DNA of 64,000 bases from Patescibacteria group bacterium (lineage in GTDB: Bacteria > Patescibacteriota > Patescibacteriia > Buchananbacterales > SURF-54). A program made the translations under genes and the position numbers. Positions 20,875 to 48,505 of this stretch are shown here, piece after piece (positions within the stretch are counted from its first letter, which is position 1; the number at the start of each line of letters is the position of its first letter). A model generated the notes under the pieces. That model had not been told where the DNA came from. It made no database searches and was given only the letters and a program-made list of their open reading frames with translations. The stretch covers positions 12,461 to 76,460 of the forward strand of contig JAHIRB010000021.1 in NCBI GenBank assembly GCA_018818885.1, read 5' to 3'.

Positions 20875-21822
20875 CTAAACTTGTAATCCTGATAAATTAT
20901 TCTCTTTATGTTTATTTAAATTTTCCACAAATTTTTTATCAATAGTAGACAACGCCTTTACATCTTCATCAAGCAAAACTTTCGGATCTACGTACCGAAA
21001 TTTTTTTATAATTTTTTTTCCTAGCAGTTGATTAACTTCTTTAAGATGTGCGTTTTCTAAAATGTCAATCAAATCTTTCCTATTACTTTTATATAATTTA
21101 TTCATTACAAATTGATCGTCAACAAACAAATCGTCTTTAACGATTATTTGATCATCTAACGCCATCTTTAAAACTTTTGCCATTTTCAAATGACGCGAAG
21201 AAGCGTCTAGGCCTCCCCAATGTTCTGTCTGTAATCTTAAAAAAGTATCAGCAAAAACTTTCGCCAAATCAAACCTTTTAAACACAATTTCGTTATCTAT
21301 AACTGCGAGATTGTTTAAAATATCTTGAGACAAGCCTGGATTAGCCCAAATTTCAAATTCCCGCAAAGCATAATCAATATTATCAGCACTTGCGTTGGGA
21401 ATATTGCTTTTGATTATTGAAAAGCTATCAACATCGACTATCTCTTTTTGATCGTAGTTGTAATTCTTTATGATATTTTTGGTATCAGAGTTTTCAAAGT
21501 ATTCATCTACGATAGTGTCGTGAAAATCTTCATTTTCCTCATGTCCAAGCGCATAATCAACACAATGAGAAAACGCGGTATGAGAGATATCATGCAGTAA
21601 ACCAGCAATTTGAGTTTTTAAATCTGCCCCTAGTTTTTTTAAAAGTAACATTACGCCCACAGAATGCTCAAAACGACTAAATCCTGGGTATGGATAATTT
21701 TCATTATGCCAACCATATTGTGCTACACCCTTTAATCGTTGCATTGATTTACTTTCAATCAAATCTATTAATACTTGGTCGCTAACTTCACACTTGCCGT
21801 ATATTGGATCTTGAATAAGCAT
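20875..21822 (-). CDS. HD-domain metal-dependent phosphohydrolase
   Basis: H...HD motif in ...FEHSVGVMLLLKKLGADLKTQIAGLLHDISHTAFSH...; 315 aa. Confidence 0.8.
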   Translation of the reverse strand: MLIQDPIYGKCEVSDQVLIDLIESKSMQRLKGVAQYGWHNENYPYPGFSRFEHSVGVMLLLKKLGADLKTQIAGLLHDISHTAFSHCVDYALGHEENEDFHDTIVDEYFENSDTKNIIKNYNYDQKEIVDVDSFSIIKSNIPNASADNIDYALREFEIWANPGLSQDILNNLAVIDNEIVFKRFDLAKVFADTFLRLQTEHWGGLDASSRHLKMAKVLKMALDDQIIVKDDLFVDDQFVMNKLYKSNRKDLIDILENAHLKEVNQLLGKKIIKKFRYVDPKVLLDEDVKALSTIDKKFVENLNKHKENNLSGLQV

Positions 21823-22921
21823 TTTTTAATTCTTTAATATTTTTAATTATAATATCAAAACCATACGCAGAAAATATTATTAATACAGGCATTAGAATTA
21901 CATCGCGTGTAGGGCTATAACCTAAATGTGCATCAACAAAAGAAGGGATAGCTGCACCTAACACAAACCATAAAATCAAAAACTTATAACTTGATTTTAG
22001 CTTGTCACTTAACATAGAAAATATTGCGATCAGTATAAAAAATACATCCCAAAAATAAACTAAACCGTAAAAATAATTTCCTCCTCGTGTCAGTAAAGTC
22101 AAAATATTAAAGTGTAATAAGTAATTGAGACTGTAATTTATTGGTATCATCATACCTTCATAAATATTCAAAACTGAAACACCACTAAAACGAGTGTGCG
22201 AAAGTGAGGGTAAATCAAAAAATAAAAACTTATCAAATCCCAAAATATTAAATTGATTCTTTAAATAAAAAAGTACTATCGGTAAACTAAAGAGAAACAT
22301 AACAGCAATACCTGCGCTAAAAAATCTTTTATTAATCTGCTTGTGATAAATAAAACAAATGATCGCAATTAATAATGGTACAAACATAAAACTTACTGCG
22401 TAAGTATAAAAAGAAAGTGCTAATAGCAAAAAACTAATGATGTAATAAACTACTTTTTTATTATTAATACCTAATAGAATAAATAATATGGCTGCAGTAT
22501 AAATTAAAGGTAATAGATATGCATTAAAGCCGATAACAGACGTTCTGATACTCCAGGGGTTAATAAGTGCAAATGCTGCTGCTATAACTGCCACCTCTTG
22601 ATTAAATAATAATTTAACAAAATGAAATAAAACAAACACAAATAGAAGGTTTGCCAGCAAAATAAGTACTCTAAAAATAACGATTGGATGCAAATTAGAG
22701 AATATTTTGATAAATGGTAATGCTAAATAAGCTAAAGTAGTATTTTCTCCCCAGCCAAAACCATAAAAATGTACTGGGACATTTTGCAACGTTATTGACT
22801 TGACCCCTTGGACGAGTTGATACTCATCAACTTCAAAATCTATACTAATAATAAAATAAATTCTGACTAATATTCCCAAAACTAAAATTAATACTAGAAA
22901 CAATTTTAATCTTTTTGACAT
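21788..22921 (-). CDS. polytopic membrane protein, putative GT-C glycosyltransferase (ArnT/PMT-like)
   Basis: ~11 TM helices. The track ORF starts with TTG at 22969; the first ATG (MSKRLKLF...) at ~22921 is preferred. Confidence 0.5.
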   Translation of the reverse strand: MSKRLKLFLVLILVLGILVRIYFIISIDFEVDEYQLVQGVKSITLQNVPVHFYGFGWGENTTLAYLALPFIKIFSNLHPIVIFRVLILLANLLFVFVLFHFVKLLFNQEVAVIAAAFALINPWSIRTSVIGFNAYLLPLIYTAAILFILLGINNKKVVYYIISFLLLALSFYTYAVSFMFVPLLIAIICFIYHKQINKRFFSAGIAVMFLFSLPIVLFYLKNQFNILGFDKFLFFDLPSLSHTRFSGVSVLNIYEGMMIPINYSLNYLLHFNILTLLTRGGNYFYGLVYFWDVFFILIAIFSMLSDKLKSSYKFLILWFVLGAAIPSFVDAHLGYSPTRDVILMPVLIIFSAYGFDIIIKNIKELKNAYSRSNIRQV

Positions 22922-23163
22922 AAATTTAAATAATTTTGATAAAGCAAAAATAACAAATATTCTGTACAAAACGAAAAGGGGCGAGATTCCTCGTCAAAGG
23001 CGAGTGTGCCTCCCGTTCAGGGTCTGAGACCCTTCAGAGTCGAATGACTGGCACAGAGCCCACATTTAATTATCCACATTAGATTTTTTATCAATCCCGT
23101 ATAAAACGGAAGAGGCGAGATTCGAACTCTCGCGAGGGTATTACTACCCCACGGCTTTTCGAG

Positions 23164-23533: not shown

Positions 23534-24370
23534 TTGTATATGAAAAAAATAAAAAAAGTAGTAATTCCAGCTGCAGGACTCGGCACTAGATTCTTACCCG
23601 CTGCTAAAGCACAACCTAAGGAAATGTTAACTATTGTTGATAAACCCTTAATTCAATATATTGTAGAAGAGGCGGTTGCTGCAGGTATCGAAGATGTAAT
23701 CATTGTCACAGGCCAAAGCAAGCGTGCAATTGAAGATCATTTTGATAGAAATATTGAATTAGAAAATACCTTAAAACGAAATGGCAAAGCAAAACTTGCA
23801 AACGAAATGAAAAAAATTGCAGAAATGGCAAACTTTATTTACATTCGTCAAAAAGGTCCTTATGGCAATGGCACACCTATTCTTAATGCTAAACATTTGA
23901 TTGGTGACGAACCATTTGCGGTTTTGTGGGGTGATGATCTATTTTTAGGTAAAGAACCGCGACTCAAACAACTCATTAAAGTTTTTAATAAATATGGGGA
24001 CCCAGTAATTAATGCCGTTAATATTGATAACGAAGGAACAAAAAAGTATGGAGTTATTGATGGACTTCAAGTAGAAAAAAATGTTTTTCAACTAAAAACA
24101 ATTATTGAAAAACCAGGGCCTAAAAAAGCACCATCACGAATTGGTGCTGTTGGTGGCTTTGTTTTAACTCCTGATATATTCGAGATTCTAGAAAAAACAC
24201 CTTTAGGAAAAGGCGGCGAGCTGTGGCTAGTTGATGCAATATTTAGATTAATGAAGAAACGACCAGTCTATGCATGCAGAGTTGATGCGGAATATTATGA
24301 TATTGGTTCACCACTAGGTTGGCTAAAAGCTAATATGGCAGTAGCAAAAAAACAAAAAATGAAAATATAA
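23534..24370 (+). CDS. galU: UTP--glucose-1-phosphate uridylyltransferase
   Basis: KKVVIPAAGLGTRFLPAAKAQPKEMLTIVDKPLIQYIVEEA... is a canonical GalU N-terminus; 278 aa. Confidence 0.9.
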   Translation: MYMKKIKKVVIPAAGLGTRFLPAAKAQPKEMLTIVDKPLIQYIVEEAVAAGIEDVIIVTGQSKRAIEDHFDRNIELENTLKRNGKAKLANEMKKIAEMANFIYIRQKGPYGNGTPILNAKHLIGDEPFAVLWGDDLFLGKEPRLKQLIKVFNKYGDPVINAVNIDNEGTKKYGVIDGLQVEKNVFQLKTIIEKPGPKKAPSRIGAVGGFVLTPDIFEILEKTPLGKGGELWLVDAIFRLMKKRPVYACRVDAEYYDIGSPLGWLKANMAVAKKQKMKI

Positions 24371-24371: not shown

Positions 24372-25751
24372 ATGAAAAAACAATATCAAAAAATATCAAT
24401 TCTATCTCTGCTGGCAGTTTTTGTTTTAGTCTCTGGTTTTAGTTGCCGTTGCATGTCCAAAGAAGAAAAACAAGCACTACAACCCATTGTTTTAAATTAC
24501 TGGCGTGCGTGGGACGATACTTCTGATTTTCAAGAAATTATAAATGCTTATCAAACACTCCATCCAAATATCACTATCAACTATAGAAAATTGAGATATC
24601 AAGAATACGAAAATGAATTATTGAATGCCTGGGCAGAAGATAGAGGCCCTGACATTTTTTCCATTCGTAATACCTGGGTTAGGGATTACCAAAATAAAAT
24701 CCTGCCATTGCCACCAGAAATTACCATGGCATATCAGTTCACACAAAAAGCACTTGGTATAAAACAAGAAACCATCATTGAAGTAAGAAAAGAAAAGAGT
24801 TTAACACCAACAGATCTAGCAAATAACTTTTTAGATGTAGTAAACCGTGATGCTGTTGTCGACGGAAAAATATGGGGACTACCTTTAAGCGTGGATACAT
24901 TAGTAATGTATTACAATAGAGATTTATTAAATAATGCAGGAATTGCTCTACCACCAACAGAATGGCGACAGTTTCAAAGTGATATTAAAAAAATCACCTT
25001 GCTAAATCGTGATAATACTATTATTCAAGCCGGCGCTGCTTTAGGCACAGGACGAAATGTACTACACGCATCAGATATAATTTCTCTTTTAATGATGCAA
25101 AACGGGGCGCAAATGGTAGATCCAAGTGGTCGAGTTACTTTTCAAAACATTCCCGAAAGTCAAAAGGGTAGTAATTACAACCCAGGTATTGAAGCAGTAA
25201 AATTTTACACTGATTTTGCACTGCCATCGCGAGAAGTTTATTCCTGGAACTCAACAATGCCAGATTCTCGAAAAGCCTTTGCTCAAGGCTTGGTTGGGTT
25301 CTACTTTGGCTATTCTTCTGACATGGAATACATCGAGGCAAACAGTAAAGGGAAAATTCATTACAACTTAACTAAAATACCACAGATAGAAGGTAACCCA
25401 GAAATTAATTTTGCTAACTATTGGTTAGAAGTGGTTTCTAAAAAAAGTGGCCACCTGAACGAAGCCTGGGATTTTATTCAATTTGCCACGCAAGCGCAGC
25501 AAGCAAAAAAATATCTTGTAGCAACAAAACAGCCAACTGCTCTAAGATCATTAGTCGACGAACAAAAAAATAGTGAGGACATGAATGTTTTTGGATCACA
25601 ACTTTTAACTACGCGAACATGGTATAGAGGCAAAAATGCTAAAAGCGCAGATAATATTTTAATCGAAATGATTGATTCAATTCTGCAGGGCGCAGATCCA
25701 GTAAAGGCAGTTCCCCTGGCTGCAGAAAAAGTTCAACAGACAATCCGGTAA
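24372..25751 (+). CDS. extracellular solute-binding protein (ABC-type sugar-binding family 1-like), lipoprotein-type signal
   Basis: Signal/lipobox (LVSGFSC), 459 aa, typical SBP length and composition. Starts 1 nt after the galU stop. Confidence 0.65.
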   Translation: MKKQYQKISILSLLAVFVLVSGFSCRCMSKEEKQALQPIVLNYWRAWDDTSDFQEIINAYQTLHPNITINYRKLRYQEYENELLNAWAEDRGPDIFSIRNTWVRDYQNKILPLPPEITMAYQFTQKALGIKQETIIEVRKEKSLTPTDLANNFLDVVNRDAVVDGKIWGLPLSVDTLVMYYNRDLLNNAGIALPPTEWRQFQSDIKKITLLNRDNTIIQAGAALGTGRNVLHASDIISLLMMQNGAQMVDPSGRVTFQNIPESQKGSNYNPGIEAVKFYTDFALPSREVYSWNSTMPDSRKAFAQGLVGFYFGYSSDMEYIEANSKGKIHYNLTKIPQIEGNPEINFANYWLEVVSKKSGHLNEAWDFIQFATQAQQAKKYLVATKQPTALRSLVDEQKNSEDMNVFGSQLLTTRTWYRGKNAKSADNILIEMIDSILQGADPVKAVPLAAEKVQQTIR

Positions 25752-25872: not shown

Positions 25873-26541
25873 ATGTTTACAAAAAATATAAAAATTCTAC
25901 TAGCATTATCTGTAATTTTATTATTGACTTTTGCGCTTGGTATCAAAACTGCAGATGCTGGGTGTTGTTTTTGCGAAGATGAAGTACCTGAATCTGCAGA
26001 TCAAGAAAGTGATTGCCGTGATGAATGTGTTTTTGAAAATGACGACAGTGTTTGTAGTCAAGTATCAACTTGCCAGAATAATCCGACAGCTCCTGGGTGC
26101 ACATCCAAAAATTGGGTAGAACAAATTGTTGGTGGACCGTTGATACCTTATGGCTGTACTACTTCATGTATAGAATGGGGGTCTGACGACAAATGTACAA
26201 ATCCCAAAGGTGCTGGGGAATGTGGATTTAATGATGTTGTAAAAATGATTGCCAACTTTTCTAAATTGCTCTTAGGCGTGGTTGGTAGCTTGGCTCTTCT
26301 AATGTTTATCTACGGTGGTTTAATGTTTGTTATTGCAGAAGGTAAAGAGGAAAGAATTCAAAAAGCAAAAGATGTCTTAAAGAATGCAGCTATTGGTTTA
26401 CTTATTGTGTTTACTGCTTGGATAATTGTTAATGTGGTCATTGCGGCGTTGACTGGACAATCCATTGGAGAACCCGCTGATCTATTCAAACAAGGCACTA
26501 CTGGACAAGGTACGCCCTGGAACCAACCTTCAGCAAATTAA
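25873..26541 (+). CDS. pilin-like paralog 1: signal peptide, 14-Cys extracellular domain, C-terminal VirB2/TrbC-like two-helix module
   Basis: C-terminal LLLGVVGSLALLMFIYGGLMFVIAEGKEERIQKAKDVLKNAAIGLLIVFTAWIIVNVV aligns with the core of the nine following genes. N-terminal 120 aa hold 14 Cys (GCCFCEDE...CRDECVFENDDSVCSQVSTCQNNPTAPGCTSKNW...CTTSCIEWGSDDKCTNPKGAGECGF). Confidence 0.6.
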   Translation: MFTKNIKILLALSVILLLTFALGIKTADAGCCFCEDEVPESADQESDCRDECVFENDDSVCSQVSTCQNNPTAPGCTSKNWVEQIVGGPLIPYGCTTSCIEWGSDDKCTNPKGAGECGFNDVVKMIANFSKLLLGVVGSLALLMFIYGGLMFVIAEGKEERIQKAKDVLKNAAIGLLIVFTAWIIVNVVIAALTGQSIGEPADLFKQGTTGQGTPWNQPSAN

Positions 26542-26661
26542 TATAATCCTACATATCCACACCACCTGTTGACAAATTAGGGATAAAGTTGTTATAATAT
26601 ACACAGTTTAATATTACTATTTAGTATAAGTTGGAGGAACTTAATAATTTTATACAAAAAC

Positions 26662-27018
26662 ATGCGAAAACTAACATTTTTCCTAACAGTATTAGCTGTT
26701 TTCACTTTAACAGCTGTACCAGTATTAGCACTTGATTGGGGCTCTGGCTATCTTTCTGCAACCGGTTTAGGAACCAAAGAACTACGAGAATCAGTAATGA
26801 GCATTGTTAATGTCGCCTTAGGATTTTTAGGCATATTGGCAATTTTAATCATCCTATGGGGTGGCTTTGTTTGGCTAACAGCTGGCGGGGATGAAAGTAA
26901 AGTAGAAAGTGCAAAAAAAATCATTACTGGTGGAGTAGTTGGGCTGGTTATTATCCTTTCCGCACTGGCAATTACCAACTTCGTAGTTGCACAAATATTG
27001 AATGCTACTGGTGCATAA
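26662..27018 (+). CDS. pilin-like paralog 2 (118 aa, minimal core form)
   Basis: Signal peptide. Core ...IVNVALGFLGILAILIILWGGFVWLTAGGDESKVESAKKIITGGVVGLVIILSALAITNFVV... ~85% identical to paralog 3. Own SD (GGAGG). Confidence 0.65.
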   Translation: MRKLTFFLTVLAVFTLTAVPVLALDWGSGYLSATGLGTKELRESVMSIVNVALGFLGILAILIILWGGFVWLTAGGDESKVESAKKIITGGVVGLVIILSALAITNFVVAQILNATGA

Positions 27019-27158
27019 ACAGTTTAATATTTAAACTTAACCCTAATATTTCCTCAAATAAAATATTAAGAATTAATTGTTTAGCTCTTTAAATAATTAA
27101 TGACGATTTATTATTAATAAAGAGTTAAGCGAGGAAAAAGGAAGGGGGTGAAAAAGAA

Positions 27159-27515
27159 ATGAAAAAACTTACTATATTTGCTACAACTGTAGCAGTATTT
27201 ACCCTAACAGTTATGCCAGTATTGGCATTAGATCTAGGAACTGGTTACTTATCAGCAACCGGTTTAGGAACCAAAGAACTTAGAGAATCAGTAATGAGTA
27301 TTGTTAATGTCGCCTTAGGATTCTTAGGTATATTGGCAATTTTAATCATCCTATGGGGTGGTTTTAGATGGTTGACTGCTGGAGGATCAGAAGATAAAGT
27401 TGGCGAAGCAAAAAAGATTATTGTTGCTGGAATTATTGGCTTAGTCATTATTCTATCAGCATTAGCAATTACTACATTTGTTGTATCGAACATACTAACT
27501 GCAACAGGAGCATAA
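27159..27515 (+). CDS. pilin-like paralog 3 (118 aa, minimal core form)
   Basis: Near-duplicate of paralog 2; strong SD (GGAAGGGGGTG); terminator immediately downstream. Confidence 0.65.
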   Translation: MKKLTIFATTVAVFTLTVMPVLALDLGTGYLSATGLGTKELRESVMSIVNVALGFLGILAILIILWGGFRWLTAGGSEDKVGEAKKIIVAGIIGLVIILSALAITTFVVSNILTATGA

Positions 27516-27540
27516 CACTAACCTTAACTATAATTTTGTT

Positions 27541-27570
27541 AAAGACCCGGAGAAATCCGGGTCTTTACTT
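27541..27570 (+). terminator. rho-independent terminator after paralog 3
   Basis: agacccgg-agaaat-ccgggtct followed by a T-rich tract. Confidence 0.6.
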
Positions 27571-27632
27571 ATTGATTATAATAGTGTATAAATCCCCTTA
27601 TTTTTTCATAGATTTTGTAGTATAATAAAGAT

Positions 27633-28049
27633 ATGAAAATACTTCATAAAAATACCTATAAAATTGTTGTGATCTTACCATTGTTGGTATATTTGTGTTT
27701 AACCTTACTGATACCAGCTGTAGTTTTTGCAAGTCCAAGTGATGATAATTATGGCCTAGACACAACTGTTGATACAGGAGGAGTTACTGAATTTGCTGGC
27801 AAAGAAAGTGATCTAAGCAAAATGGCCGGACAATTTATAAATTACGTTTTGGGAATAGTTGGTACTATCTTTTTTCTTGTCATTCTAATTGGCGGCTATA
27901 GATGGATGACAGCAGGTGGTAGCGAAGAAAAAGTTGGTGCAGCAAAAAAGATTATTGTGCAAGGTATTTTCGGTATGTTAGCTATCTTTTTAGCTTATGC
28001 ATTAGCCTTTGCTATAATACAAGCATTGACTACGGCAATAAAACCTTAA
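27633..28049 (+). CDS. pilin-like paralog 4 (138 aa)
   Basis: Signal peptide, variable region, then core ...YVLGIVGTIFFLVILIGGYRWMTAGGSEEKVGAAKKIIVQGIFGMLAIFLAYALAFAII... Confidence 0.6.
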   Translation: MKILHKNTYKIVVILPLLVYLCLTLLIPAVVFASPSDDNYGLDTTVDTGGVTEFAGKESDLSKMAGQFINYVLGIVGTIFFLVILIGGYRWMTAGGSEEKVGAAKKIIVQGIFGMLAIFLAYALAFAIIQALTTAIKP

Positions 28050-28068
28050 TAATGAATATTGCGATGAG

Positions 28069-28461
28069 ATGGCTAATAGATTAAAAAAACAAATATTACT
28101 TACTTTAGTCTGTTGTTTGATAATCTTACCTGCAACAAGCATACTAGCTACCACTGTGGAAGAAAGCCTAATTAATTCTGGCAAAGAAGCTGGATTTTAT
28201 AAAGGTGAAGAAACCGCTAGTTTTTCTCAAGCTCTTATTGTTTACGCTAATGGTTTAGCAGGAATGCTAGGAGTATTATATTTAATTCTAATGATGTATG
28301 CCGGGTATGTTTGGATGAACTCAAGAGGTAATGAAGAAGAAGTTACTAAAGCAAGAAAAATAATAATTTGGTCTACAGTTGGCATAGGAACAATATTAAT
28401 GGCTCTTATTATTTCCGAATTTATTATATATAATTTCTACACGCAATCTAAAACTCCGTAA
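28069..28461 (+). CDS. pilin-like paralog 5 (130 aa)
   Basis: Core ...LGVLYLILMMYAGYVWMNSRGNEEEVTKARKIIIWSTVGIGTILMALIISEFII... Confidence 0.6.
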   Translation: MANRLKKQILLTLVCCLIILPATSILATTVEESLINSGKEAGFYKGEETASFSQALIVYANGLAGMLGVLYLILMMYAGYVWMNSRGNEEEVTKARKIIIWSTVGIGTILMALIISEFIIYNFYTQSKTP

Positions 28462-28474
28462 ATATCTTTAAAAA

Positions 28475-28888
28475 ATGACTATTCAAAGCAAGTTTATCAA
28501 AACCATTTTGTGTAGCTTACTAATCTTAGTTTGCTTAAATATACCTTTACATTATATTGCCGCTACAGATAGCATAGGTCAACGAATGGCAGATGAATCA
28601 CAAAAAGCAGCAAAAGCTGCAAAATTCGATGATACACCAGATTTTACAACTTCTGCACTTGGACTTATCAATATACTTTTAGGTTTTCTAGGTGTTTTCT
28701 TCATCATTTTAATAATATATGGCGGATACCTATGGATGGATGCGCGTGGCAGAGAAGAACAAATTGATAAAGGAAAAAAAATATTAATTGCTGCGTTTAT
28801 TGGCATTGTTATAATTATAAGTGCGAGAATCATATCTGAATATCTACTAATAGAAATATTTAATAAAGCTGCTCAAAAAATATCATGA
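28475..28888 (+). CDS. pilin-like paralog 6 (137 aa)
   Basis: Core ...LGFLGVFFIILIIYGGYLWMDARGREEQIDKGKKILIAAFIGIVIIISARIISEYLL... Confidence 0.6.
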   Translation: MTIQSKFIKTILCSLLILVCLNIPLHYIAATDSIGQRMADESQKAAKAAKFDDTPDFTTSALGLINILLGFLGVFFIILIIYGGYLWMDARGREEQIDKGKKILIAAFIGIVIIISARIISEYLLIEIFNKAAQKIS

Positions 28889-29331
28889 ATATAAATTACA
28901 ATAAAATTATTATTATACTTGTTGCCGGATTTTTATTTATGAATATATGCACACCAGTACTGGCAACAGAATGTGACGACCCATCTTTTACTATTGTTCA
29001 AAAAATGGCTTGTCAAAATAAAAAGTCGGACCTGCCTGGGTATCTTGATTCAGGTGGAGGCACAATCTCAACCAACTCCCCGGATGTAGTAGTTGGCAAA
29101 GTTATAGGATATATGCTAACTTTTTTGGGAGTATTGTTTTTAGTATTAATTATTTACGGTGGCTATCTTTGGATGACAGCCAGCGGTAATGACGACCAAA
29201 TCGGCAAGGCTAAAAAGATAATTATTGGCGCTTTTATTGGGTTTGTAATCATTATATTAGCAAATATTATTGTACAGTTCGCTACGCAAGTTATTGAACA
29301 AGGAGTTACCACGCCAGAAGCTACTGAATAA
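28885..29331 (+). CDS. pilin-like paralog 7 (148 aa)
   Basis: ATGA overlap with paralog 6. Core ...LTFLGVLFLVLIIYGGYLWMTASGNDDQIGKAKKIIIGAFIGFVIIILANIIVQF... Confidence 0.6.
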   Translation: MNINYNKIIIILVAGFLFMNICTPVLATECDDPSFTIVQKMACQNKKSDLPGYLDSGGGTISTNSPDVVVGKVIGYMLTFLGVLFLVLIIYGGYLWMTASGNDDQIGKAKKIIIGAFIGFVIIILANIIVQFATQVIEQGVTTPEATE

Positions 29332-29346
29332 AAATTCGTTTAATTT

Positions 29347-29754
29347 ATGATAAAAAATAAAAAAATAATAAATTTCATCTTCTTATTAGCGATCTTTTTA
29401 ATACTGGTCCAACCTCTTGCAGTGCAAGCTAGCATATTTGAAACAATAAGAAGCAAGACTGTTGGCTTTGGAGATTTACCTGACTATTCCGCAACTGAAA
29501 ACAGCCCGGAATTAATAGCAGGTAGAATAATCGGATATTTATTATCTTTCCTAGGAGTATTATTTATTATTTTAATTATTTATGGCGGCTTTATGTGGAT
29601 GACAGCCTCAGGCAATGACGAACAGGTAGAAAAAGCAAAAAAGATGATTAAAAGAGCAACGATTGGATTATTTATTGTGTTAGCTTCAGCTGCAATTGCA
29701 TGGAGCGTATTTTTGGCACTAAGTAAATCTAATATTTACTTGTTGCCTGAGTAG
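29347..29754 (+). CDS. pilin-like paralog 8 (135 aa)
   Basis: Core ...LSFLGVLFIILIIYGGFMWMTASGNDEQVEKAKKMIKRATIGLFIVLASAAIAWSVF... Confidence 0.6.
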   Translation: MIKNKKIINFIFLLAIFLILVQPLAVQASIFETIRSKTVGFGDLPDYSATENSPELIAGRIIGYLLSFLGVLFIILIIYGGFMWMTASGNDEQVEKAKKMIKRATIGLFIVLASAAIAWSVFLALSKSNIYLLPE

Positions 29755-29777
29755 ATATTACTACAATAAAATTTATT

Positions 29778-30164
29778 ATGAATAAATATTATAAAACACT
29801 AAGTTATATAGTTCCCAACTTTGCCATATTATTATTTTGTAAAACAGCAAAAGCAACGGAGATGTATGAAAGAGTCAACAAATTTAACGTTGCGGCAGGA
29901 CTAACTGCAACTCCGGCAAGTGTTGTAATAACTTCAATTATCAGTTATTTATTATCGTTTGTTGGTGTTCTATTCATAATATTAATTATCTATGGTGGCT
30001 ACATGTGGATGACAGCGCGCGGTAACGACGAACAGGTTGAAAAAGCAAAAAAATTAATAATTAGAGCCACTATTGGTATATTAATTGTTTTATCTGCATA
30101 CGTAATTACTTATTTTGTATTAAAAGTAGTGCTTGGATCCACGGGTATTGCCACATCATCATAA
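29778..30164 (+). CDS. pilin-like paralog 9 (128 aa)
   Basis: Core ...LSFVGVLFIILIIYGGYMWMTARGNDEQVEKAKKLIIRATIGILIVLSAYVITYFVL... Confidence 0.6.
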   Translation: MNKYYKTLSYIVPNFAILLFCKTAKATEMYERVNKFNVAAGLTATPASVVITSIISYLLSFVGVLFIILIIYGGYMWMTARGNDEQVEKAKKLIIRATIGILIVLSAYVITYFVLKVVLGSTGIATSS

Positions 30165-30166
30165 AT

Positions 30167-30604
30167 ATGAAACTTCCAACCAAATTACTAAACTTATTTA
30201 TACTAAGCATAGTCATAATACAATTATTTACTTTTTTTGTAGTTAGACCTGTAGCACACGCTGGTTTGTGGGAAGACATCAGAGGCGAACTTGAACCAAT
30301 TGGGACAGCTTATGGTGTTACCGGTGCTCCTAATGATCCTCGGGATATCGCTATGACCGTTGTTAATTTCGCCTTGGGCTTTTTCTCTGTCATATTTCTA
30401 ATTTTGATTATCTATGCAGGCTACTTATGGATGACAGCAAGAGGCAACGACGATCAAATTGAAAAAGCAAAAAAAATAATTACTAGAACAGTCATTGGCG
30501 CAGCTATTGTGTTGGCTGCTTGGATGATTACTCTTTTTGTTATATCAACACTCCTAAGTGCTACAAACGAAAATCTTTTCCGTGATCGCTGGCGTTGGTT
30601 TTAA
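30167..30604 (+). CDS. pilin-like paralog 10 (145 aa)
   Basis: Core ...LGFFSVIFLILIIYAGYLWMTARGNDDQIEKAKKIITRTVIGAAIVLAAWMITLFVI...; 2-nt gap from paralog 9. Confidence 0.6.
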   Translation: MKLPTKLLNLFILSIVIIQLFTFFVVRPVAHAGLWEDIRGELEPIGTAYGVTGAPNDPRDIAMTVVNFALGFFSVIFLILIIYAGYLWMTARGNDDQIEKAKKIITRTVIGAAIVLAAWMITLFVISTLLSATNENLFRDRWRWF

Positions 30605-30848: not shown

Positions 30849-32765
30849 ATGCAAAAAATTAATGAATTTTTAGAAAAAAAGACTGTACTAATTCTTGTTA
30901 TAGCTATAATTTTATATGTAATGCTTTTTAGTTTAATTTGCCTTTGGAAATACACCAATTATTCTTATGACCTTCTAGATTTATCAATAATCAACCAGGT
31001 TTTTTTTAATTCTGCAAGTGGTGATTTTTTTGCTTCAAGCATCCATCCCCCCTCTTATTTGGGTGACCATTTTACGCCGATTTTGATTCTACTCTTACCT
31101 TTTTATTTTCTCTTTAAATCCCCCCTTACATTATTGTTTTTACAGACAATAATACTTGCTCTCTGCGCGTGGCCTATTTATTTGATTGCAAACAAAATTT
31201 TAAATAGACGTTGGGGATTATTTTTTGCCTTGATGTTTTTAGTTAATCCTTTAATTGCCAATGTTAATCTATTTGAATTTCACTTTATCCCTTTTGCTAT
31301 ATTCACTTTACTATGGGCAATATATTTTTATCTTAAAGAAGACTTTTGGAAATTTCTTCTGTTTATTTTTTTGAGTTTATTAATTCGCGAAGATGTTTCT
31401 TTAGTAATTTTTATGTTTGGTATTTTAGCATTGTTTGATAGAAAAAAAAATAAATGGGTGCTAACACCAATATTTCTTTCCATACTTTACTTTATAATAT
31501 CTGTAAAAATCACAAGTATTTTTTGGCCGGGTGGAAATTATAAGTTTATGATCTATTATTCTTGGCTTGGAGAAAACTGGCCAGAGCTTATTAAGAATTC
31601 AATTTTAAAAATTGATAAAGTTTTTTTGCACTTCTTCAAGCTCGGTAATATCGAAATGATATTAGGTTTACTGTTACCTTTTGCTCTACTGCCTTTACTT
31701 GCACCTAAATTTTTGATTTTAACTTTACTTATTTTTGTCCAGTTTGTTTTAGGTGAAGCAGGTGGCAGTGCACTTATTGTAAAAACTCATTATTCATCTT
31801 TGTTTATCCCAGCATTATTTACTGCCACGATCATAGCCCTTAAAAAATTTCAAAATAAAAAAATTCAGTTTATTTTTTTTAAATTTCTTCAAAAAGAAAA
31901 AACACTGGCAATTCTCATATTTGTGGTTGCAATTATTTACACTTCAATAGCGCTTGGTCCTTCAATTGGAATTATAAAAACTATAAAAAACACTAAAACT
32001 ATAAAAAACAATACTGACATCAAAAATAAAATGATTGAGCAAATTGATCCTAACGATAGCGTTGTTTCTTCTTATGGTGCATTGACTCCTCTGTCTTCAA
32101 GAAAAAATGTCTATTCCTTACACTATATCTATATGGGCTACCAGCAGTTTAGTAGGAATAAATACGTATTGATAGACCCTGTTGATGCAATGTTAATTGA
32201 TTATCAAGATCTATTTACCTATTATCTTCAATATTATGACAAGTTAGAAGAAGACGAGGAGCTTAATCCTAATAATCTTAATGAACTAATCAAAAATAAT
32301 AATTTAGGACTTGTTGAAATAACCAATGGCATTGCATTATACAAAAAAAATGTAGCAACTGATTATGCACTCTACCAAATACATAATCAAATCCCAAGTA
32401 TAGACTTTCAGCAATCATTGAATTTGGATGATCAAATGATGTTTTTGGGATACAGTCTCTTACCCAACAACGGGGTTGCGACATACTGGCAAAAAATTGG
32501 CGATTCTGATAATTATTTCATAAGGACCAATTCAGACGATATTTTTCTACTTGCATACGGATTGTATCCATTAAAGAATTGGGGAGTAAACGAAATTGTT
32601 CAAATGAACTTTTGGTTTGACCATACAAAAAATAACTCCCAAGTTAGCTTGGAAGTTATCGAAGTTGAAGGTGGTGTAATTCTAAGTGGAATCAGAAGCA
32701 CTCAAAATGCTATCAAAACAAAAACTATTGGGGAATCGATTCAAATTCAGTTACCGACAAACTGA
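30849..32765 (+). CDS. large polytopic membrane protein, DUF2079-like (putative GT-C glycosyltransferase)
   Basis: 638 aa, ~12 TM helices, N-terminal ...DLLDLSIINQVFFNSASGDFFASSIHPPSYLGDHFTPILILLLPFYF... recalled as DUF2079-like. Family call is tentative. Confidence 0.5.
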   Translation: MQKINEFLEKKTVLILVIAIILYVMLFSLICLWKYTNYSYDLLDLSIINQVFFNSASGDFFASSIHPPSYLGDHFTPILILLLPFYFLFKSPLTLLFLQTIILALCAWPIYLIANKILNRRWGLFFALMFLVNPLIANVNLFEFHFIPFAIFTLLWAIYFYLKEDFWKFLLFIFLSLLIREDVSLVIFMFGILALFDRKKNKWVLTPIFLSILYFIISVKITSIFWPGGNYKFMIYYSWLGENWPELIKNSILKIDKVFLHFFKLGNIEMILGLLLPFALLPLLAPKFLILTLLIFVQFVLGEAGGSALIVKTHYSSLFIPALFTATIIALKKFQNKKIQFIFFKFLQKEKTLAILIFVVAIIYTSIALGPSIGIIKTIKNTKTIKNNTDIKNKMIEQIDPNDSVVSSYGALTPLSSRKNVYSLHYIYMGYQQFSRNKYVLIDPVDAMLIDYQDLFTYYLQYYDKLEEDEELNPNNLNELIKNNNLGLVEITNGIALYKKNVATDYALYQIHNQIPSIDFQQSLNLDDQMMFLGYSLLPNNGVATYWQKIGDSDNYFIRTNSDDIFLLAYGLYPLKNWGVNEIVQMNFWFDHTKNNSQVSLEVIEVEGGVILSGIRSTQNAIKTKTIGESIQIQLPTN

Positions 32766-34333
32766 TAAATAGAGATATTTTCTTGATTATAAATTTCTTT
32801 AAGGCGACATTGTCCAATGTCGTTTTCTTTTTTATTAAAAATTACGTAATTAATTTTATTACGTTCTAAAAAACTATCTTTTTGTTCGCAACTAACTTTG
32901 GATAAATAAAACCATTGGTTAAGTATCTTTTTATTGTTTTTAAAATACAAGGTTTCAATTTCGTGTGCTGCATATACTTTTTGGTCCGCATATGCTGGTA
33001 TAAACAAACTATCAAACAACGGTGCTAATACCACTCCTTTGTCTGGTATATATTGATCTAACCATCGCCAGGCCTCAACTTTTTCATCAGGTAAATAAAA
33101 ATTGGAATTACCATTGCTAAAATAATAAATATCTTTTGCTATAACAAACAAATTAGTTGGTGCAATCAATAATAAAAACAAAACCACTGCTAATAATTTA
33201 TTGTTTAATTTTTTATACAGTAAATAAAGAGGGGTGCATGCAAGTACTGCTAAAGGAAAAATTAAGCTCTGCAAAAAACGACTTTGGAATTGTGTCGGTA
33301 TTACTACTAGTAATAAAATTGCCGCCAGCCAGGCTACAAGAAATAATTTTTTTTCATCATATTTATTAGACTTAATTAGCTTGTAAATGGTAAAACCAGA
33401 AAATAACCACAGGAGTCCATACCCTAAAATAATGATCCACAAAGAATCCAAGACAACAATATTTTGAGTTGCTCTAGTATATAATACAGGCACTGTTTTG
33501 ATCAACCAGATATGATAAAAAATCGAAGGAAGCGAAATCACAAAAATTATTGCTACGTGACTAACTTTTTGCCACCCAATTTTCTTGTTCTGTATAAATA
33601 ATGCTAATAGATACAATGATAATATTAAAAAAATGGTTAAAAAATAAAATGGATGAAAATTAAAATAAATCAAAGCCAATATTCCTGCAATAATTGAATA
33701 CCTAAATTTATTATGGTCAAAAGATAACAAAATCAATAAGATAATCAAAAACATCATAATGTACGACATGATAAAATGCGGGCTTTGATACATTGTTAAA
33801 AACAAATTCGATTCTGCAACCCACAAATCTGTAGAATGAAAATAATACTGACTGATTTCTGCTAAAGGTGCAAAATAAAAACCTAAGCCTGATGACAAAG
33901 CTAATATTATAAGTGTAAATTTTCTTTGATTAGTTTCTTTAAAAAAGTAAGCGATTAACAAATAACTAACAACTATCAGTGCTGGTATCAACAAAATTCT
34001 AAACACATGAAATGCTAGAGCAGGCGTAAAAATAAAAATTTTTGCAAATAGACCGACTATCAACCAACTGATATTGAAAAAACCAATTTCTTGGTTTTCT
34101 GATGTAAAATAATCTTCAAATAGATAATCACCTGTCTTGACTTGGTTTATATAGGAAAAATAAATTGGCGGGTCGCCTGGAGATAAAGAATGTAGACCAT
34201 TATAAACGGTACCTGGAGGCACATTAAAGTAAGCAAAAATATAAGGAAAAGTTACAATCACAACCACGGCCAAACTAAAAAATAAGACATAAGCCCATTC
34301 TCGTTTTGAAATTGTTGCCAATAATTCCTTCAT
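32747..34333 (-). CDS. polytopic membrane protein, putative GT-C glycosyltransferase; paralog of 34330-35976
   Basis: Shared N-terminal blocks with the next gene (EWxxVxF...PY...YxGxHxL...D.P.YxSYI.Q...G..LF...F.SE) and similar TM topology; 528 aa. Confidence 0.5.
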   Translation of the reverse strand: MKELLATISKREWAYVLFFSLAVVVIVTFPYIFAYFNVPPGTVYNGLHSLSPGDPPIYFSYINQVKTGDYLFEDYFTSENQEIGFFNISWLIVGLFAKIFIFTPALAFHVFRILLIPALIVVSYLLIAYFFKETNQRKFTLIILALSSGLGFYFAPLAEISQYYFHSTDLWVAESNLFLTMYQSPHFIMSYIMMFLIILLILLSFDHNKFRYSIIAGILALIYFNFHPFYFLTIFLILSLYLLALFIQNKKIGWQKVSHVAIIFVISLPSIFYHIWLIKTVPVLYTRATQNIVVLDSLWIIILGYGLLWLFSGFTIYKLIKSNKYDEKKLFLVAWLAAILLLVVIPTQFQSRFLQSLIFPLAVLACTPLYLLYKKLNNKLLAVVLFLLLIAPTNLFVIAKDIYYFSNGNSNFYLPDEKVEAWRWLDQYIPDKGVVLAPLFDSLFIPAYADQKVYAAHEIETLYFKNNKKILNQWFYLSKVSCEQKDSFLERNKINYVIFNKKENDIGQCRLKEIYNQENISIYQFVGN

Positions 34334-35976
34334 AAAACTTGATAAACAAAATAATCATCATTGCTATATATCTCAAAAAGATATTTCTTACTTACTGGAT
34401 TATAATCACCCAACCTTTTTTCTCTAAAAGAATAATAAACATAATCAATATTTCTTAGATTTAAAAAATCTTTTTCTAAAACATCATCTCGATTCTTACT
34501 ATAAAACCAATTGGCTTCATTTTCTTTTATATATGAATTAATAGTTTCCACAGTATGCCCATTATATACACGACGAGTTGAAAAACCTGGGATTAAATTA
34601 CCACTTGTTTTCCCAGAAAATATTATTTCATCATCTTTTGTGTTTGTTTTAAGCCACTGAAAAACTTTTAACTCACTATTATCAATATAATAAATGTCGT
34701 CTCCTCTGTTAAATAACATGATGTCGGTTGCTATATGAACTAAGGGTGTTGAAAAAAACATAATTATTAATACAAAAATTATGAAAACTGGGTTATTTAA
34801 CCAACGATATTTATTTTTTATGCTTGTATAAACCAATACCAATAAATAAACAGTAAGTAGCGACATGGGAAATGTCATACCCTGAACCATTCTACGCTGG
34901 AATACAAATGGCAAGTAAATAATAATTAACTGGGCATACAGCCATATGACTAACAAACTTAATTTATTATCCTTTAATTTTTTACTATATAATAAATAAA
35001 TTGAACCAATAATTGGAAGCAACAATAAGAACCCATAACCGATTAATAATAAGAAGGGGGTGCTGGTAGGACAGGTATTTTGTAAATATTTAATTTGACC
35101 ATTTAAATTAATATTCACAAACCAATTATAATAGATTATGATTGGCGACGAAATTGCTACAAAAATAATATAATTAAAATATTTTTTCCATACTATCCTT
35201 TTTTCTTTTATCGACTGAAAAGTAAAAATAACAAAAATGATTGGAAATAATGAAAAAATATGAAATGGGTGAAAAGAAAACAAAAGTAATGCCAATATTC
35301 CTGCGATTATCGCATAGCTTCTCTTGTTATTTTCAAGGCATAAAAACATCAACAAAAATATCAATAATATCAACGCTATTGCTGCGATATGATGAGGGCT
35401 ATAATACGTCATTAAAAAAACAAAACTTTCAATAATCCACAGATCAGCTGGCCAAATATATTTACCATCAACTAATATATTTGCCAATTTATCAATAAAA
35501 AATAACATATAATAAAAACCCCAACCCGAGGCAAAAGTAAAAAAGATCAAACTTAATTTTCTTAATCTTTTATCATCAAAGAAATAACTTATTAATAGAT
35601 AGCTTATAATTAATAAAATTGGAATAAAACAAATTCTTGATATTTGGAAAGAAGCCTGTGGGGAAATATTGAATAGTCTAGATATTGTCCCAGGAAATAA
35701 CCAAATAATATTTAATATATCGTGATCATGGGTTTCTGATGAAAATAAATTAGTAAATAATAAATTACCTTCACTCGCCTGCGAAATATACGAGTAATAA
35801 ACCGGTTGATCTGTGGACATTAATAAATGAAAGCCAGTACTTACCTTTCCTTCTGGCGCCTTTAACCAACCATAAACATAAGGTAGAGTGGTAACAATGA
35901 TTGTTAAAATAATAATAGCAAAAACAAACTTCCACTCTTTTTTGTTAATAGAGCTTGTTAGTTGAGTAAAATTCAT
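34330..35976 (-). CDS. polytopic membrane protein, putative GT-C glycosyltransferase; paralog of 32747-34333
   Basis: 548 aa; 4-nt overlaps with both neighbours (operon). Confidence 0.5.
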   Translation of the reverse strand: MNFTQLTSSINKKEWKFVFAIIILTIIVTTLPYVYGWLKAPEGKVSTGFHLLMSTDQPVYYSYISQASEGNLLFTNLFSSETHDHDILNIIWLFPGTISRLFNISPQASFQISRICFIPILLIISYLLISYFFDDKRLRKLSLIFFTFASGWGFYYMLFFIDKLANILVDGKYIWPADLWIIESFVFLMTYYSPHHIAAIALILLIFLLMFLCLENNKRSYAIIAGILALLLFSFHPFHIFSLFPIIFVIFTFQSIKEKRIVWKKYFNYIIFVAISSPIIIYYNWFVNINLNGQIKYLQNTCPTSTPFLLLIGYGFLLLLPIIGSIYLLYSKKLKDNKLSLLVIWLYAQLIIIYLPFVFQRRMVQGMTFPMSLLTVYLLVLVYTSIKNKYRWLNNPVFIIFVLIIMFFSTPLVHIATDIMLFNRGDDIYYIDNSELKVFQWLKTNTKDDEIIFSGKTSGNLIPGFSTRRVYNGHTVETINSYIKENEANWFYSKNRDDVLEKDFLNLRNIDYVYYSFREKRLGDYNPVSKKYLFEIYSNDDYFVYQVL

Positions 35977-36686
35977 TTTTTAAATCTTAAAAAAAGTACC
36001 TTTAAAAAACTTTCGATGATGATTTTGAATTCAAATTTTGATGTACCAATTTGTCGTTCAGTAAAAGTAATTGGCAGCTCTTTTATTTTGAATCCTTTTT
36101 GATAAGCACGATAAGTTGTTTCGATTTGAAAGTTGTATCCAACAGAAGAAAGTTCATTAATATCTATGGATTCTAATACTTGACGTTTATAACATTTAAA
36201 TCCGCCAGTTAAATCTTTGATAGGTAAAAATAAAATTACCTGAGCGTATATATTTCCAAACCTACTTATTAATCTCCTCATTAAATTCCAATTTATTATC
36301 TTACCACCTCTGGTATATCTTGAACCTAGAACCAAGTCACATGATTTTATTTTTTCTAAAAATTGTGGTATATACTCTGGTTTATGCGAAAAATCTGCAT
36401 CCATTTCAAAAATTAAATCAGCGCCTGCCTTTAATGCATGCTTAAACCCAGCAACGTAAGCTGTTCCTAGCCCCATTTTGCCTTGACGATGGAGAATGTG
36501 TAAATTTGAATATTTTGATTTTAGGTCGTCGACCAATTGGCCCGTTCCGTCTGGAGAATTGTCATCAACTACTAAAATATTTAAATTATCAATGTGTAGA
36601 TTAAAAATTTCATCGATGATTGTACCGATATTATTTTTCTCGTTGTATGTAGGAATGATTATGTATATTTTATTTTGATTCTCCAT
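35973..36686 (-). CDS. GT2 polyprenol-phosphate sugar synthase (dolichol-phosphate mannosyltransferase/Dpm1-like, soluble form)
   Basis: IIIPTYNEKNNIGTII...LNILVVDDNSPDGTGQLVDDL...GKMGLGTAYVAGF...EMDADFSHKPEYIPQFL...LVLGSRY: DxD and GT2 motifs; 237 aa. Confidence 0.8.
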   Translation of the reverse strand: MENQNKIYIIIPTYNEKNNIGTIIDEIFNLHIDNLNILVVDDNSPDGTGQLVDDLKSKYSNLHILHRQGKMGLGTAYVAGFKHALKAGADLIFEMDADFSHKPEYIPQFLEKIKSCDLVLGSRYTRGGKIINWNLMRRLISRFGNIYAQVILFLPIKDLTGGFKCYKRQVLESIDINELSSVGYNFQIETTYRAYQKGFKIKELPITFTERQIGTSKFEFKIIIESFLKVLFLRFKK

Positions 36687-36687
36687 A

Positions 36688-38316: not shown

Positions 38317-38345
38317 GAGATTGATTGCTTTTGCTAAGTAGTTAA

Positions 38346-39761: not shown

Positions 39762-40395
39762 AATGGTTAGAAATATTTTCTTTTTTCTTTTCTATAATGA
39801 AAGTTGGTGATAATAAACCAACTAATTTTTTTATTTTAAACTTAATAATACAATATGGAAAATATCCAAAAATGCTTGCATGAGGAAATAATATTTTTAT
39901 ATCCCTTAAATTAAAAAAATGTTTGTGTCCAATATTTTGTAACTTATTTGGTTTAATACCCAACCAATGGAAAAGTTTCATCAGAAAAAAATAGCTATTG
40001 GGTGTTGTCAATATTAATTTTCCATTCAATTTCATAACTCTATTAAACTCTTTGATTGAGTCTTTGGGAGAATTTAAATGCTCAAGCACTTCTGTTGCCC
40101 ACACTATATCAAAAGTAAAATCTTCAAATGGTAAACCTTTATTAACATCTACCCTTTGACAATCTTTATACATCTTTTCCTTATCAATAGAAATAACTCT
40201 AAATCCACTTTGTTTTAATATTTCCGACCAATAACCTTCTCTACAACCGACATCTAAAACAATTTTACCTTTACCTTGCCCAACCAAACTTAAAGCAATT
40301 AATTTACCCTTAGTTATTTTTGCCATTTTCTCTTGTGCTAAATCAATGGGTATTTTTTTTAACAGCTGTAATGATTTGTTTATTATTTTAAGCAT
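39754..40395 (-). CDS. class I SAM-dependent methyltransferase (MTase 1 of 5)
   Basis: VLDVGCREGYWSEILKQSGFRVISID (motif I), WATEVLEHL (motif II-like), LILTTPN. Confidence 0.8.
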   Translation of the reverse strand: MLKIINKSLQLLKKIPIDLAQEKMAKITKGKLIALSLVGQGKGKIVLDVGCREGYWSEILKQSGFRVISIDKEKMYKDCQRVDVNKGLPFEDFTFDIVWATEVLEHLNSPKDSIKEFNRVMKLNGKLILTTPNSYFFLMKLFHWLGIKPNKLQNIGHKHFFNLRDIKILFPHASIFGYFPYCIIKFKIKKLVGLLSPTFIIEKKKENISNHYV

Positions 40396-42420: not shown

Positions 42421-42451
42421 TTATTATTTTATTATCCGAAAACATTTAATA

Positions 42452-43819: not shown

Positions 43820-43835
43820 TATTAAATTATATTAC

Positions 43836-44630: not shown

Positions 44631-44657
44631 AATTGCACATTATTAATATTACACTAT

Positions 44658-45440: not shown

Positions 45441-45448
45441 TTTTAAAA

Positions 45449-46204: not shown

Positions 46205-46218
46205 AGAAAAAATTAACT

Positions 46219-47400: not shown

Positions 47401-47441
47401 AATATATATGTTCTTTATGAAACCACTAAAAAACTTATGGT

Positions 47442-48377: not shown

Positions 48378-48505
48378 ACCCGGTAGTAGAAATTTAATTA
48401 TTAGGTTAGTATATAATTTGTTTAAAATAATTGTTGATAAATATTATAATTAATTTATCCTGTGCGTGAAATAGCGTTTATTAAATTTCCACTACCGGGA
48501 TATAT

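Follow-up and report, generated by a model that had tools for sequence, protein, structure and literature searches.

An ordered array of ten VirB2-like pilin genes between a solute-binding protein gene and a DUF2079 gene in a member of the Patescibacteria

Patescibacteria account for a large share of bacterial diversity. Here we describe a tandem array of ten genes for VirB2-like pilins (P1 to P10, positions 25873-30604, plus strand) within a 64,000-nucleotide (nt) stretch of DNA, referred to below as the window, from a Patescibacteria group bacterium of the Buchananbacterales (GenBank assembly GCA_018818885.1, contig JAHIRB010000021.1, positions 12,461 to 76,460). Arrays of VirB2-like pilin genes have already been published for Patescibacteria (PMC10633639, PMC12102498, PMC12857230), and the window array is a further example. 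Two features of it appear to be new: the positional orthology of its members across genomes, and a recurrent neighborhood in which galU, a gene for an extracellular solute-binding protein (SBP), the pilin array, and a gene for a DUF2079 membrane protein follow one another. Neither the positional orthology nor the linkage of galU and the SBP gene to DUF2079 is mentioned in PMC12102498, and the word "solute" is absent from its text.

In Ca. Southlakia epibionticum ML1, a member of the Saccharimonadia, a series of pilins lies inside a type IV secretion system (T4SS) gene cluster, SEML1_0006-0019, and is essential by transposon sequencing (Tn-seq) (Wang et al. 2023; PMC10633639). The Southlakia pilins and those of the window array share a Sec-type leader followed by a two-helix core. 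The former are located within the T4SS cluster, whereas the window array has no T4SS gene for approximately 25-35 kb on either side and is instead bordered by galU, the SBP gene, and the DUF2079 gene. Southlakia also represents the Saccharimonadia, while the window lineage is ABY1-like.

A broader survey, by Quinonero-Coronel et al. (2025), applied PF18895 and PF04956 to 3,035 genomes and found that 1,948 VirB4-positive assemblies encode VirB2-like pilins and that in 1,135 of these the pilin genes lie close to virB4 (PMC12102498). It described 441 arrays of 2 to 11 pilin genes in 383 assemblies, with a mean identity of about 25% and a maximum of 54%, and suggested antigenic or host-range variation for these Patescibacterial VirB2 arrays. 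Array mapping in that work is centered on the surroundings of virB4, as the legend of its Fig. S9 indicates, and Microgenomatia and Saccharimonadia are given prominence. The window array falls under the published definition, under which at least 2 PF18895 or VirB2-like genes of low identity stand in tandem, or with one gene between them, in a Patescibacterial genome. It resembles those arrays in protein family, in tandem arrangement, and in divergence, with about 25% mean identity there against 22-42% here apart from the P2/P3 pair. It differs in that the published arrays were mapped around virB4 and reach at most 54% identity, whereas the window array is unlinked to virB4 and contains a pair, P2/P3, at 81%.

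Three other known systems are also informative. Agrobacterium VirB2 and TrbC (PF04956) have the same long leader and 2 hydrophobic helices with a short loop between them, but the loop of the window proteins has about 7 extra residues and is highly charged (EEQVEKAKK), the window host is monoderm, no virB1 or virB3 adjoins the array, and there are ten paralogues rather than one. The T4SSs of Bartonella and Anaplasma phagocytophilum contain tandem divergent copies of virB2 (cited in PMC12102498) and thus share with the window both the multiplicity of divergent tandem copies and a host-dependent bacterium. Those organisms, however, are diderm intracellular animal pathogens whose paralogues are thought to serve antigenic variation, while the window paralogues have positional orthologues, which argue for fixed roles. 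Finally, Mbov_0395 and MMCAP2_0565 of Mycoplasma integrative and conjugative elements (NF045849) are small two-helix proteins of a wall-less or monoderm T4SS, and the match of the window proteins spans nearly the whole 80-position model. Members of the Mbov_0395 family are encoded by single genes on mobile elements, in contrast to the ten-gene array of the window, the proteins of which score under the family cut-off.

The array consists of ten consecutive open reading frames (ORFs) on the plus strand, encoding proteins of 222, 118, 118, 138, 130, 137, 148, 135, 128, and 145 amino acids (aa) from P1 to P10. These genes and the two regulatory-type signals found among them are as follows.

25873..26541, plus strand: P1, first-position pilin, 222 aa, PF18895 46.4 bits
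26569..26598, plus strand: sigma-70-type promoter-like site before P2, TTGACA-18-TATAAT with 12/12 consensus matches and TG upstream, a pattern match only
26662..27018, plus strand: P2, short pilin, 118 aa, candidate major subunit, PF18895 45.2 bits
27159..27515, plus strand: P3, paralogue of P2, 118 aa, PF18895 46.2 bits
27540..27567, plus strand: terminator-like hairpin after P3, 12-pair stem with 6 GC pairs, 4-nt loop, T-rich tail, a pattern match only
27633..28049, plus strand: P4, pilin, 138 aa, opens the tight P4-P10 block, PF18895 30.3 bits
28069..28461, plus strand: P5, pilin, 130 aa, PF18895 34.0 bits
28475..28888, plus strand: P6, pilin, 137 aa, PF18895 37.9 bits; its stop is shared with the P7 start in ATGA, 28885-28888
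28885..29331, plus strand: P7, pilin, 148 aa, PF18895 40.3 bits
29347..29754, plus strand: P8, pilin, 135 aa, PF18895 36.5 bits
29778..30164, plus strand: P9, pilin, 128 aa, the paralogue nearest to canonical TrbC/VirB2, PF18895 37.8 bits
30167..30604, plus strand: P10, last-position pilin, 145 aa, PF18895 36.4 bits

A preliminary description of this DNA, made by a model from the letters and a list of ORFs, had reported ten same-strand genes of 118-222 aa at these coordinates, with which the ORF list agrees. The first genes are separated by 120 nt (P1-P2), 140 nt (P2-P3), and 117 nt (P3-P4), and the gaps from P4 to P10 are 19, 13, -4, 15, 23, and 2 nt. The tight P4-P10 operon with one ATGA overlap proposed in that description is thus reproduced by the computed gaps, and co-expression of P4-P10 is implied by gaps of 2-23 nt together with the overlap. 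The description had also given P2 and P3 a promoter and a terminator of their own, which agrees with the consensus matches listed above, namely the site before P2 and the hairpin after P3. Promoter-like sites overall are not enriched in the window, with 24 found versus 23.5 expected from shuffled sequence.

PF18895 (T4SS_pilin) is the top Pfam family for all ten proteins, at 30.3-46.4 bits against a gathering score of 26.6, and precomputed Pfam hits on the source contig are concordant with this assignment. A chance match is excluded, since every one of the ten proteins scores 30-46 bits against this cut-off. Searches with PF04956 (TrbC/VirB2; cut-off 27.9) gave 25.7 bits for P9 (E 1.3e-5) and 11.3 bits for P1, both under the cut-off, and the remaining eight proteins are not reported at E ≤ 1. 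By these scores, the array proteins are not members of PF04956 in the strict sense. We also used hhalign to compare a profile of the ten paralogues with five annotated VirB2/TrbC genes located between virB1 and virB3 on plasmids of Agrobacterium, Sinorhizobium, Sphingobium, and Bradyrhizobium. The resulting alignment has a probability of 70.2% and an E value of 4e-5 over 62 columns spanning both helices. Superfamily-level homology to VirB2/TrbC pilins therefore has moderate support at the level of profiles, and the identification of the proteins as VirB2/TrbC-type pilin homologues in the preliminary description holds up, with all ten passing PF18895 and P9 falling near the PF04956 cut-off.

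Short proteins with two transmembrane segments yield many weak matches to unrelated membrane families, and a fold search cannot separate a hairpin of this kind from other helical proteins. Both points are what would be expected if the ten belonged to some unrelated group of small membrane proteins, for example holins, bacteriocin immunity proteins, or fragments of transporters, and resembled pilins by convergence. We regard this as very improbable. PF18895 is the top match of every protein and above a curated cut-off, and the profile-profile similarity to annotated VirB2 proteins is independent of it. A better match to a holin or bacteriocin immunity family, which the preliminary description had raised as an alternative, is absent among the Pfam, NCBIfam, and PHROGs matches at the thresholds used, and the profile searches of these three collections thus speak against a holin or immunity-protein identity. 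The best NCBIfam match is NF045849 (Mbov_0395) for all ten proteins, at 22.6-34.5 bits and under the 40-bit cut-off, so they are not members of that family.

By hydropathy and alignment, all ten proteins have an N-terminal hydrophobic leader, a variable segment, and 2 hydrophobic helices with a short charged loop. The leaders end in small-x-small motifs, which from P1 to P10 are ADA, VLA, VLA, VFA, ILA, IAA, VLA, VQA, AKA, and AHA. The hydropathy segments and these motifs agree with the earlier observation of a signal peptide and a two-helix module in every protein. The loop consensus quoted with that observation, IIYGGYxWMTAxGN(D/E)EQ(V/I)EKAKK, fits P6-P10 best, but the only residues invariant across all ten are G149, G157, G175, and the start Met (P1 numbering). 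An AlphaFold2 model of P9, computed with the ten paralogues as alignment, contains helices at residues 3-39 (the leader), 47-79, and 84-121, with core predicted local distance difference test (pLDDT) values of 80-91, and thus forms a helical hairpin plus a leader helix.

Pairwise identity within the array is 22-42%, save for the P2/P3 pair at 81%. Divergence is unevenly distributed along the proteins, with a mean identity between paralogues of 40% in the two-helix core (23-84%) versus 19% in the N-terminal region. We estimate from the alignment and the hydropathy segments that the variable segment is about 15-45 aa long in P2-P10 and about 90 aa in P1, where it takes the form of an insert with 12 Cys that separates the leader from helix 1. 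P1 also ends in a tail of about 25 aa. The preliminary description had called this segment hypervariable and 0-45 aa long. It is indeed divergent between paralogues, but the lengths are those given here, and the segment is conserved between orthologues. P2 and P3, which had been considered near-identical, are 81% identical in aa and 74% in nt sequence, with a synonymous divergence (dS) of about 1.25 and a ratio of nonsynonymous to synonymous divergence (dN/dS) of 0.13. These last two values indicate that the P2/P3 duplication is old and under purifying selection.

Related arrays were found by scanning one genome per GTDB species with 2 conserved peptide patterns seeded from P7-P10. This recovered at least 579 relatives among the GTDB species genomes, and 78 loci were kept (labeled below by L and a number). 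Those with informative labels are nearly all metagenome-assembled genomes of Patescibacteria (Falkow-, Magasanik-, Uhr-, Buchanan-, Veblen-, and Komeilibacteria, and Paceibacter). Many other records apparently carry placeholder or mis-binned names (L008, L010, L012, L040, L042, L043, L081, and others), with titles such as "uncultured Gammaproteobacteria bacterium", Planctomycetota, Lysobacteraceae, Nanoarchaeia, and Methylomirabilis, yet have Patescibacteria gene content. Scoring with a hidden Markov model built from the ten paralogues identified tandem arrays in 67 of the 78 fetched loci, mostly of 5-10 genes, with 6-7 the commonest and 13 the maximum.

Within the arrays that share the neighborhood of the window array, the best matches of the window pilins are largely collinear. 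The best match of P1 is the first array gene in 7 loci (L011, L077, L044, L035, L018, L023, and L037). The second gene is the match of P2 and P3 alike; it is a single orthologue in L011, L077, and L044 and is present in three copies in L035. P4 has its best match in the gene that follows the P2-type gene or genes (L011, L077, L035, and L037), and P9 and P10 match the last genes, with P10 corresponding to the last pilin gene in L011, L077, L044, and L035. Orthology is less clearly resolved for the middle paralogues. Sequence conservation follows the same pattern, as P2-type orthologues are 57-69% identical in L011, L077, L044, and L035 (57-62% when P2 itself is compared), including the mature N-terminus, and 45-58% identical in more distant arrays. 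First-position orthologues have in common only a two-Cys motif, LIPxxC...C-G, and a tail that is conserved at the C-terminus. The Cys-rich insert of P1 is largely lineage-specific, a comparable N-terminal extension (8 Cys) being found in L037 alone.

This pattern bears on the function most readily suggested by such arrays. The preliminary description presumed the N-termini to be exposed and diversified and named a variable repertoire as one possibility, and under a reading of this sort the ten proteins would be interchangeable major subunits, with N-termini diversified to evade recognition or to match host strains. Low identity between paralogues in the N-terminal region (19% on average versus 40% in the core) fits such a role, as do the range of array sizes between genomes (4-13 genes) and lineage-specific duplications such as P2/P3 here and the three copies in L035. 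It is also the published suggestion for Patescibacteria (PMC12102498), as proposed for the VirB2 paralogues of Bartonella and Anaplasma. Comparison of orthologous arrays, however, shows that while array size does vary, the N-terminal segments are conserved within a class: each paralogue class keeps its own N-terminal sequence, mature N-terminus included, across distant genomes, and positional orthologues persist despite flanking proteins that have diverged to 43-68% identity. The N-terminal variability is thus a difference between conserved paralogue classes, which argues against ongoing diversification. The only recent-looking duplicate pair, P2/P3, is under strong purifying selection (dN/dS 0.13, dS about 1.25), and the spacing of P4-P10, with gaps of 2-23 nt and one overlap, implies joint rather than alternative expression. 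No inverted repeats, recombinase, or silent cassettes were noticed beside the array, although no search aimed at them was made. We therefore consider a variation repertoire unlikely, and a fixed set of specialized subunits is favored over a rapidly varying one because positional orthologues are found across distant genomes.

The paralogues make up an ordered set of ancient origin, which suggests a heteromeric structure with a major and several minor subunits. The major subunit is probably of the P2/P3 type: no other class is as well conserved from genome to genome or has so short a mature N-terminus, and these two genes come with a consensus promoter and a terminator of their own. For P1, which has an N-terminal domain with Cys and a tail at its C-terminus, a minor or accessory role in decorating or initiating the structure is probable, and the P4-P10 block probably encodes minor or accessory subunits as well.

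The array is flanked by the following genes.

23534..24370, plus strand: galU, UTP-glucose-1-phosphate uridylyltransferase, TIGR01099 334 bits versus a cut-off of 326.8, Pfam NTP_transferase
24372..25751, plus strand: orphan sugar-type extracellular SBP (SBP_bac_1), PF01547 95.7 bits, with an N-terminal signal or lipoprotein-like leader
30849..32765, plus strand: DUF2079 polytopic membrane protein, PF09852 189 bits

The SBP gene begins 1 nt past the end of galU. Its product has weak similarity to GanS/MalE, and no family of ATP-binding cassette (ABC) permease or ATPase partners for it is found anywhere in the window, either in the Pfam hits or in our own scans. Downstream of the array and on the minus strand, an envelope-glycan block of about 18 kb (32747-50920) contains three GT2 and one GT4 glycosyltransferase genes, genes for PMT_2, MptA_B-family, and EpsG-like proteins, six S-adenosylmethionine (SAM) methyltransferase genes, and several large membrane ORFs without a family match. 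These flanks correspond to what had been described earlier, namely a sugar-uptake-type gene upstream, here the SBP gene, and a glycosylation island downstream, here DUF2079 followed by the glycosyltransferase and methyltransferase genes. Further genes of a similar kind occur upstream of the array, encoding Wzx-like (11336-12769), Wzy_C (12772-14082), and additional PMT_2 (21788-22969) proteins.

The order galU, SBP, array, DUF2079 recurs in related loci (L008-L085), where the flanking proteins are 27-69% identical to those of the window. The nearest flanking proteins are those of a Ca. Buchananbacteria metagenome-assembled genome (L011), at 68% identity for GalU, 55% for the SBP, and 43% for DUF2079. 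With the window included, an SBP homologue lies immediately upstream and co-directional in 22 of the 50 arrays for which the upstream flank is available, and a DUF2079 homologue lies within 3 ORFs downstream in 17 of the 56 with a downstream flank. A galU homologue is present in 17 loci (16 related loci and the window), where it is usually followed closely by the SBP gene. A second recurrent neighborhood, cluster c5, has a gene on the opposite strand for a 546-aa polytopic membrane protein upstream of the array, and the genes downstream encode a small lipoprotein and a secreted protein of 189 aa that is conserved. Pfam has no match for any of these three proteins. The 189-aa neighbor had been a candidate 3D-domain wall hydrolase and possible VirB1 analogue, an idea we dropped as Pfam gave no match.

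In the region of about 70 kb that was examined, comprising the window and 4.5 kb upstream of it (ENA ERZ27247128, the 137-kb metagenome contig k141_1104353, positions 19283 to approximately 88000, window position 1 being 23816), precomputed Pfam hits include no VirB4, VirD4, VirB6, VirB3, TrsD, or VirB11 family from -4.5 kb to +64 kb, and Pfam and NCBIfam scans of the unannotated large ORFs of the window did not find T4SS families either. This confirms the earlier observation that no T4SS ATPase or channel gene lies near the array. The same is true of its relatives, as none of 68 arrays (67 related loci and the window) has a VirB4-like ATPase within 10 kb on each side. The candidates for VirB4 near related arrays, Walker-A ORFs of 450 aa or more, proved to be UvrA, Der, DnaA, IF-2, SMC, ComM, and an AAA protein. 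Surroundings free of this ATPase are thus the rule in the clade, rather than an anomaly, and relatives are tabulated with VirB4 elsewhere in the genome. In Table S3 of PMC12102498, the VirB4 of a Falkowbacteria (ABY1) assembly is gene 789 and its VirB2 genes, 589-595, carry the flag for not being near it, and the VirB2 genes in the ABY1 entries of that table considered here are likewise flagged as not near VirB4. Entries in Table S1 place Buchananbacteria in the GTDB class ABY1 and mark Buchananbacteria assemblies, among those of ABY1, as VirB4-positive. As a separate observation, the array is about 3-5 kb from dnaA in 3 loci (L013, L021, and L047), which recalls the published placing of Patescibacterial T4SS genes near the replication origin.

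We consider it moderately probable that the array encodes Sec-exported pilins, stored in the membrane as hairpins, from which a T4SS with its genes at another site in the genome builds a heteromeric filament or conduit on the cell surface. Export would go through Sec, and signal peptidase I would cleave each pilin behind the small-x-small motif. The mature protein would then sit in the membrane as an alpha-helical hairpin, with its N- and C-termini facing outward and the short Lys-rich loop (KAKK) in the cytoplasm. A monoderm-type T4SS with VirB4, TrsD, VirB3, and VirB6 homologues would extract the pilins and polymerize them, and by analogy with Saccharibacteria the resulting filament may be located at the point of contact with a host cell. 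One published view is that a Patescibacterial T4SS pilus might serve as a conduit through which uptake from the host takes place (PMC12857230). Of this scheme, the protein family, the topology features, and the conserved order of genes and neighbors are shown by the sequences, whereas processing, reliance on a distal T4SS, assembly into a filament, and the division into major and minor subunits are inferred.

Some relatives of the pilins occur in another form. In about 10 loci (L038, L050, L039, L043, L046, L061, L070, L076, L079, and L084), giant ORFs are found in place of an array of small pilins, for instance at 6606-15211 in L038 and 7612-19954 in L050, and in 6 loci they form an adjacent pair of 645-1055 aa and 1776-3367 aa. 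Each opens with a complete pilin module of leader and 2 helices. The four giant ORFs tested all contain Big_5 Ig-like domains, with TIG domains also in the two larger ones. From their domain content, these look like adhesin-type proteins anchored or presented by a VirB2-like module. An outward C-terminus of the hairpin is supported by these relatives, since the pilin module is fused to the N-terminus of giant Ig-like-domain proteins.

Several observations weigh against assembly of the array proteins by a T4SS. Nine of the ten proteins are far under the PF04956 cut-off, and the hhalign probability to VirB2/TrbC is 70%. A Foldseek search of the P9 model against the PDB gave only E values above 1, with generic helical proteins as top hits, and a profile search of PDB sequences returned spurious membrane-transporter matches and no pilin. 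The model searched included the leader helix, and since so simple a fold as a two-helix hairpin has no diagnostic value, we take the fold search as uninformative rather than negative. The assignment of major and minor subunits draws on conservation and on consensus matches to a promoter and a terminator. With the T4SS families absent from the examined region, a cognate T4SS is an assumption, and the conserved linkage is to galU, SBP, and DUF2079 genes without T4SS genes, which could indicate a different partner machinery. Lastly, no T4SS pilus has been observed in any Patescibacterium, and a 2025 review calls such a pilus an intriguing possibility (PMC12857230).

If the partner machinery is indeed different, the proteins could be T4SS-independent, that is, co-opted hairpins serving as membrane or surface subunits that work with their conserved neighbors. 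They might be anchors or oligomeric pores tied to the SBP, to a UDP-glucose supply from galU, and to DUF2079 as a GT-C-type enzyme, and they would act in glycan export, in formation of a glycosylated surface layer, or in sugar capture. The lack of a VirB4-like ATPase within 10 kb of any of the 68 arrays is in keeping with this, as is the conserved linkage itself, with an SBP gene directly upstream in 22/50 arrays, DUF2079 within 3 ORFs downstream in 17/56, and galU abutting the SBP gene. The second recurrent context (c5) likewise has a large polytopic membrane protein adjoining the array, and the glycosyltransferase and methyltransferase island of about 18 kb adjoins the array in the window. 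Most arrays, on the other hand, have no SBP or DUF2079 neighbor, and gene order in small genomes of the candidate phyla radiation (CPR) can persist by descent without functional coupling. The proteins are homologous to T4SS pilins, arrays of Saccharimonadia and Microgenomatia adjoin virB4, and ABY1 relatives carry VirB4. On balance, a role independent of any T4SS seems improbable to us, and distal assembly by a T4SS is the reading we retain.

A more specific and quite unlikely proposal is that galU, the SBP gene, the ordered pilin set, and DUF2079, with the glycosyltransferase island, are a functional unit. In one version, a heteromeric and possibly glycosylated VirB2-type filament would be coupled in its assembly or function to a surface SBP, making a T4SS-derived organelle that captures or imports carbohydrates of the host. 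In another, the pilin hairpins would build a surface structure independent of a T4SS.

Two other ORFs of the window have no Pfam family above threshold. In one (5468-7825, 785 aa), residues 307-435 weakly resemble spermidine synthase (aminopropyltransferase). The other (15339-17582, 747 aa) recurs in 3 of the related loci fetched and in L010 shortly precedes the SBP gene. Within a few kb ahead of the window start (1559-3507 of L003, contig 20.8-22.8 kb) are a serine-recombinase gene (Recombinase and Zn_ribbon_recom) and a Fic-domain gene, which may constitute a small mobile or defense-related islet.

The T4SS and its pilins are essential in the only Patescibacterial species in which they have been tested. 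The locus described here leaves the general picture of the Patescibacterial T4SS unchanged and adds 2 usable constraints. The first is that the paralogues form an ordered and ancient set, which argues against antigenic variation. The second is that the array is accompanied, across a large clade, by genes for a UDP-glucose enzyme, an orphan SBP, and a DUF2079 protein, and not by virB4. Were the functional-unit reading true, it would provide a concrete and testable function for the long-puzzling "T4SS pilins" of Patescibacteria.

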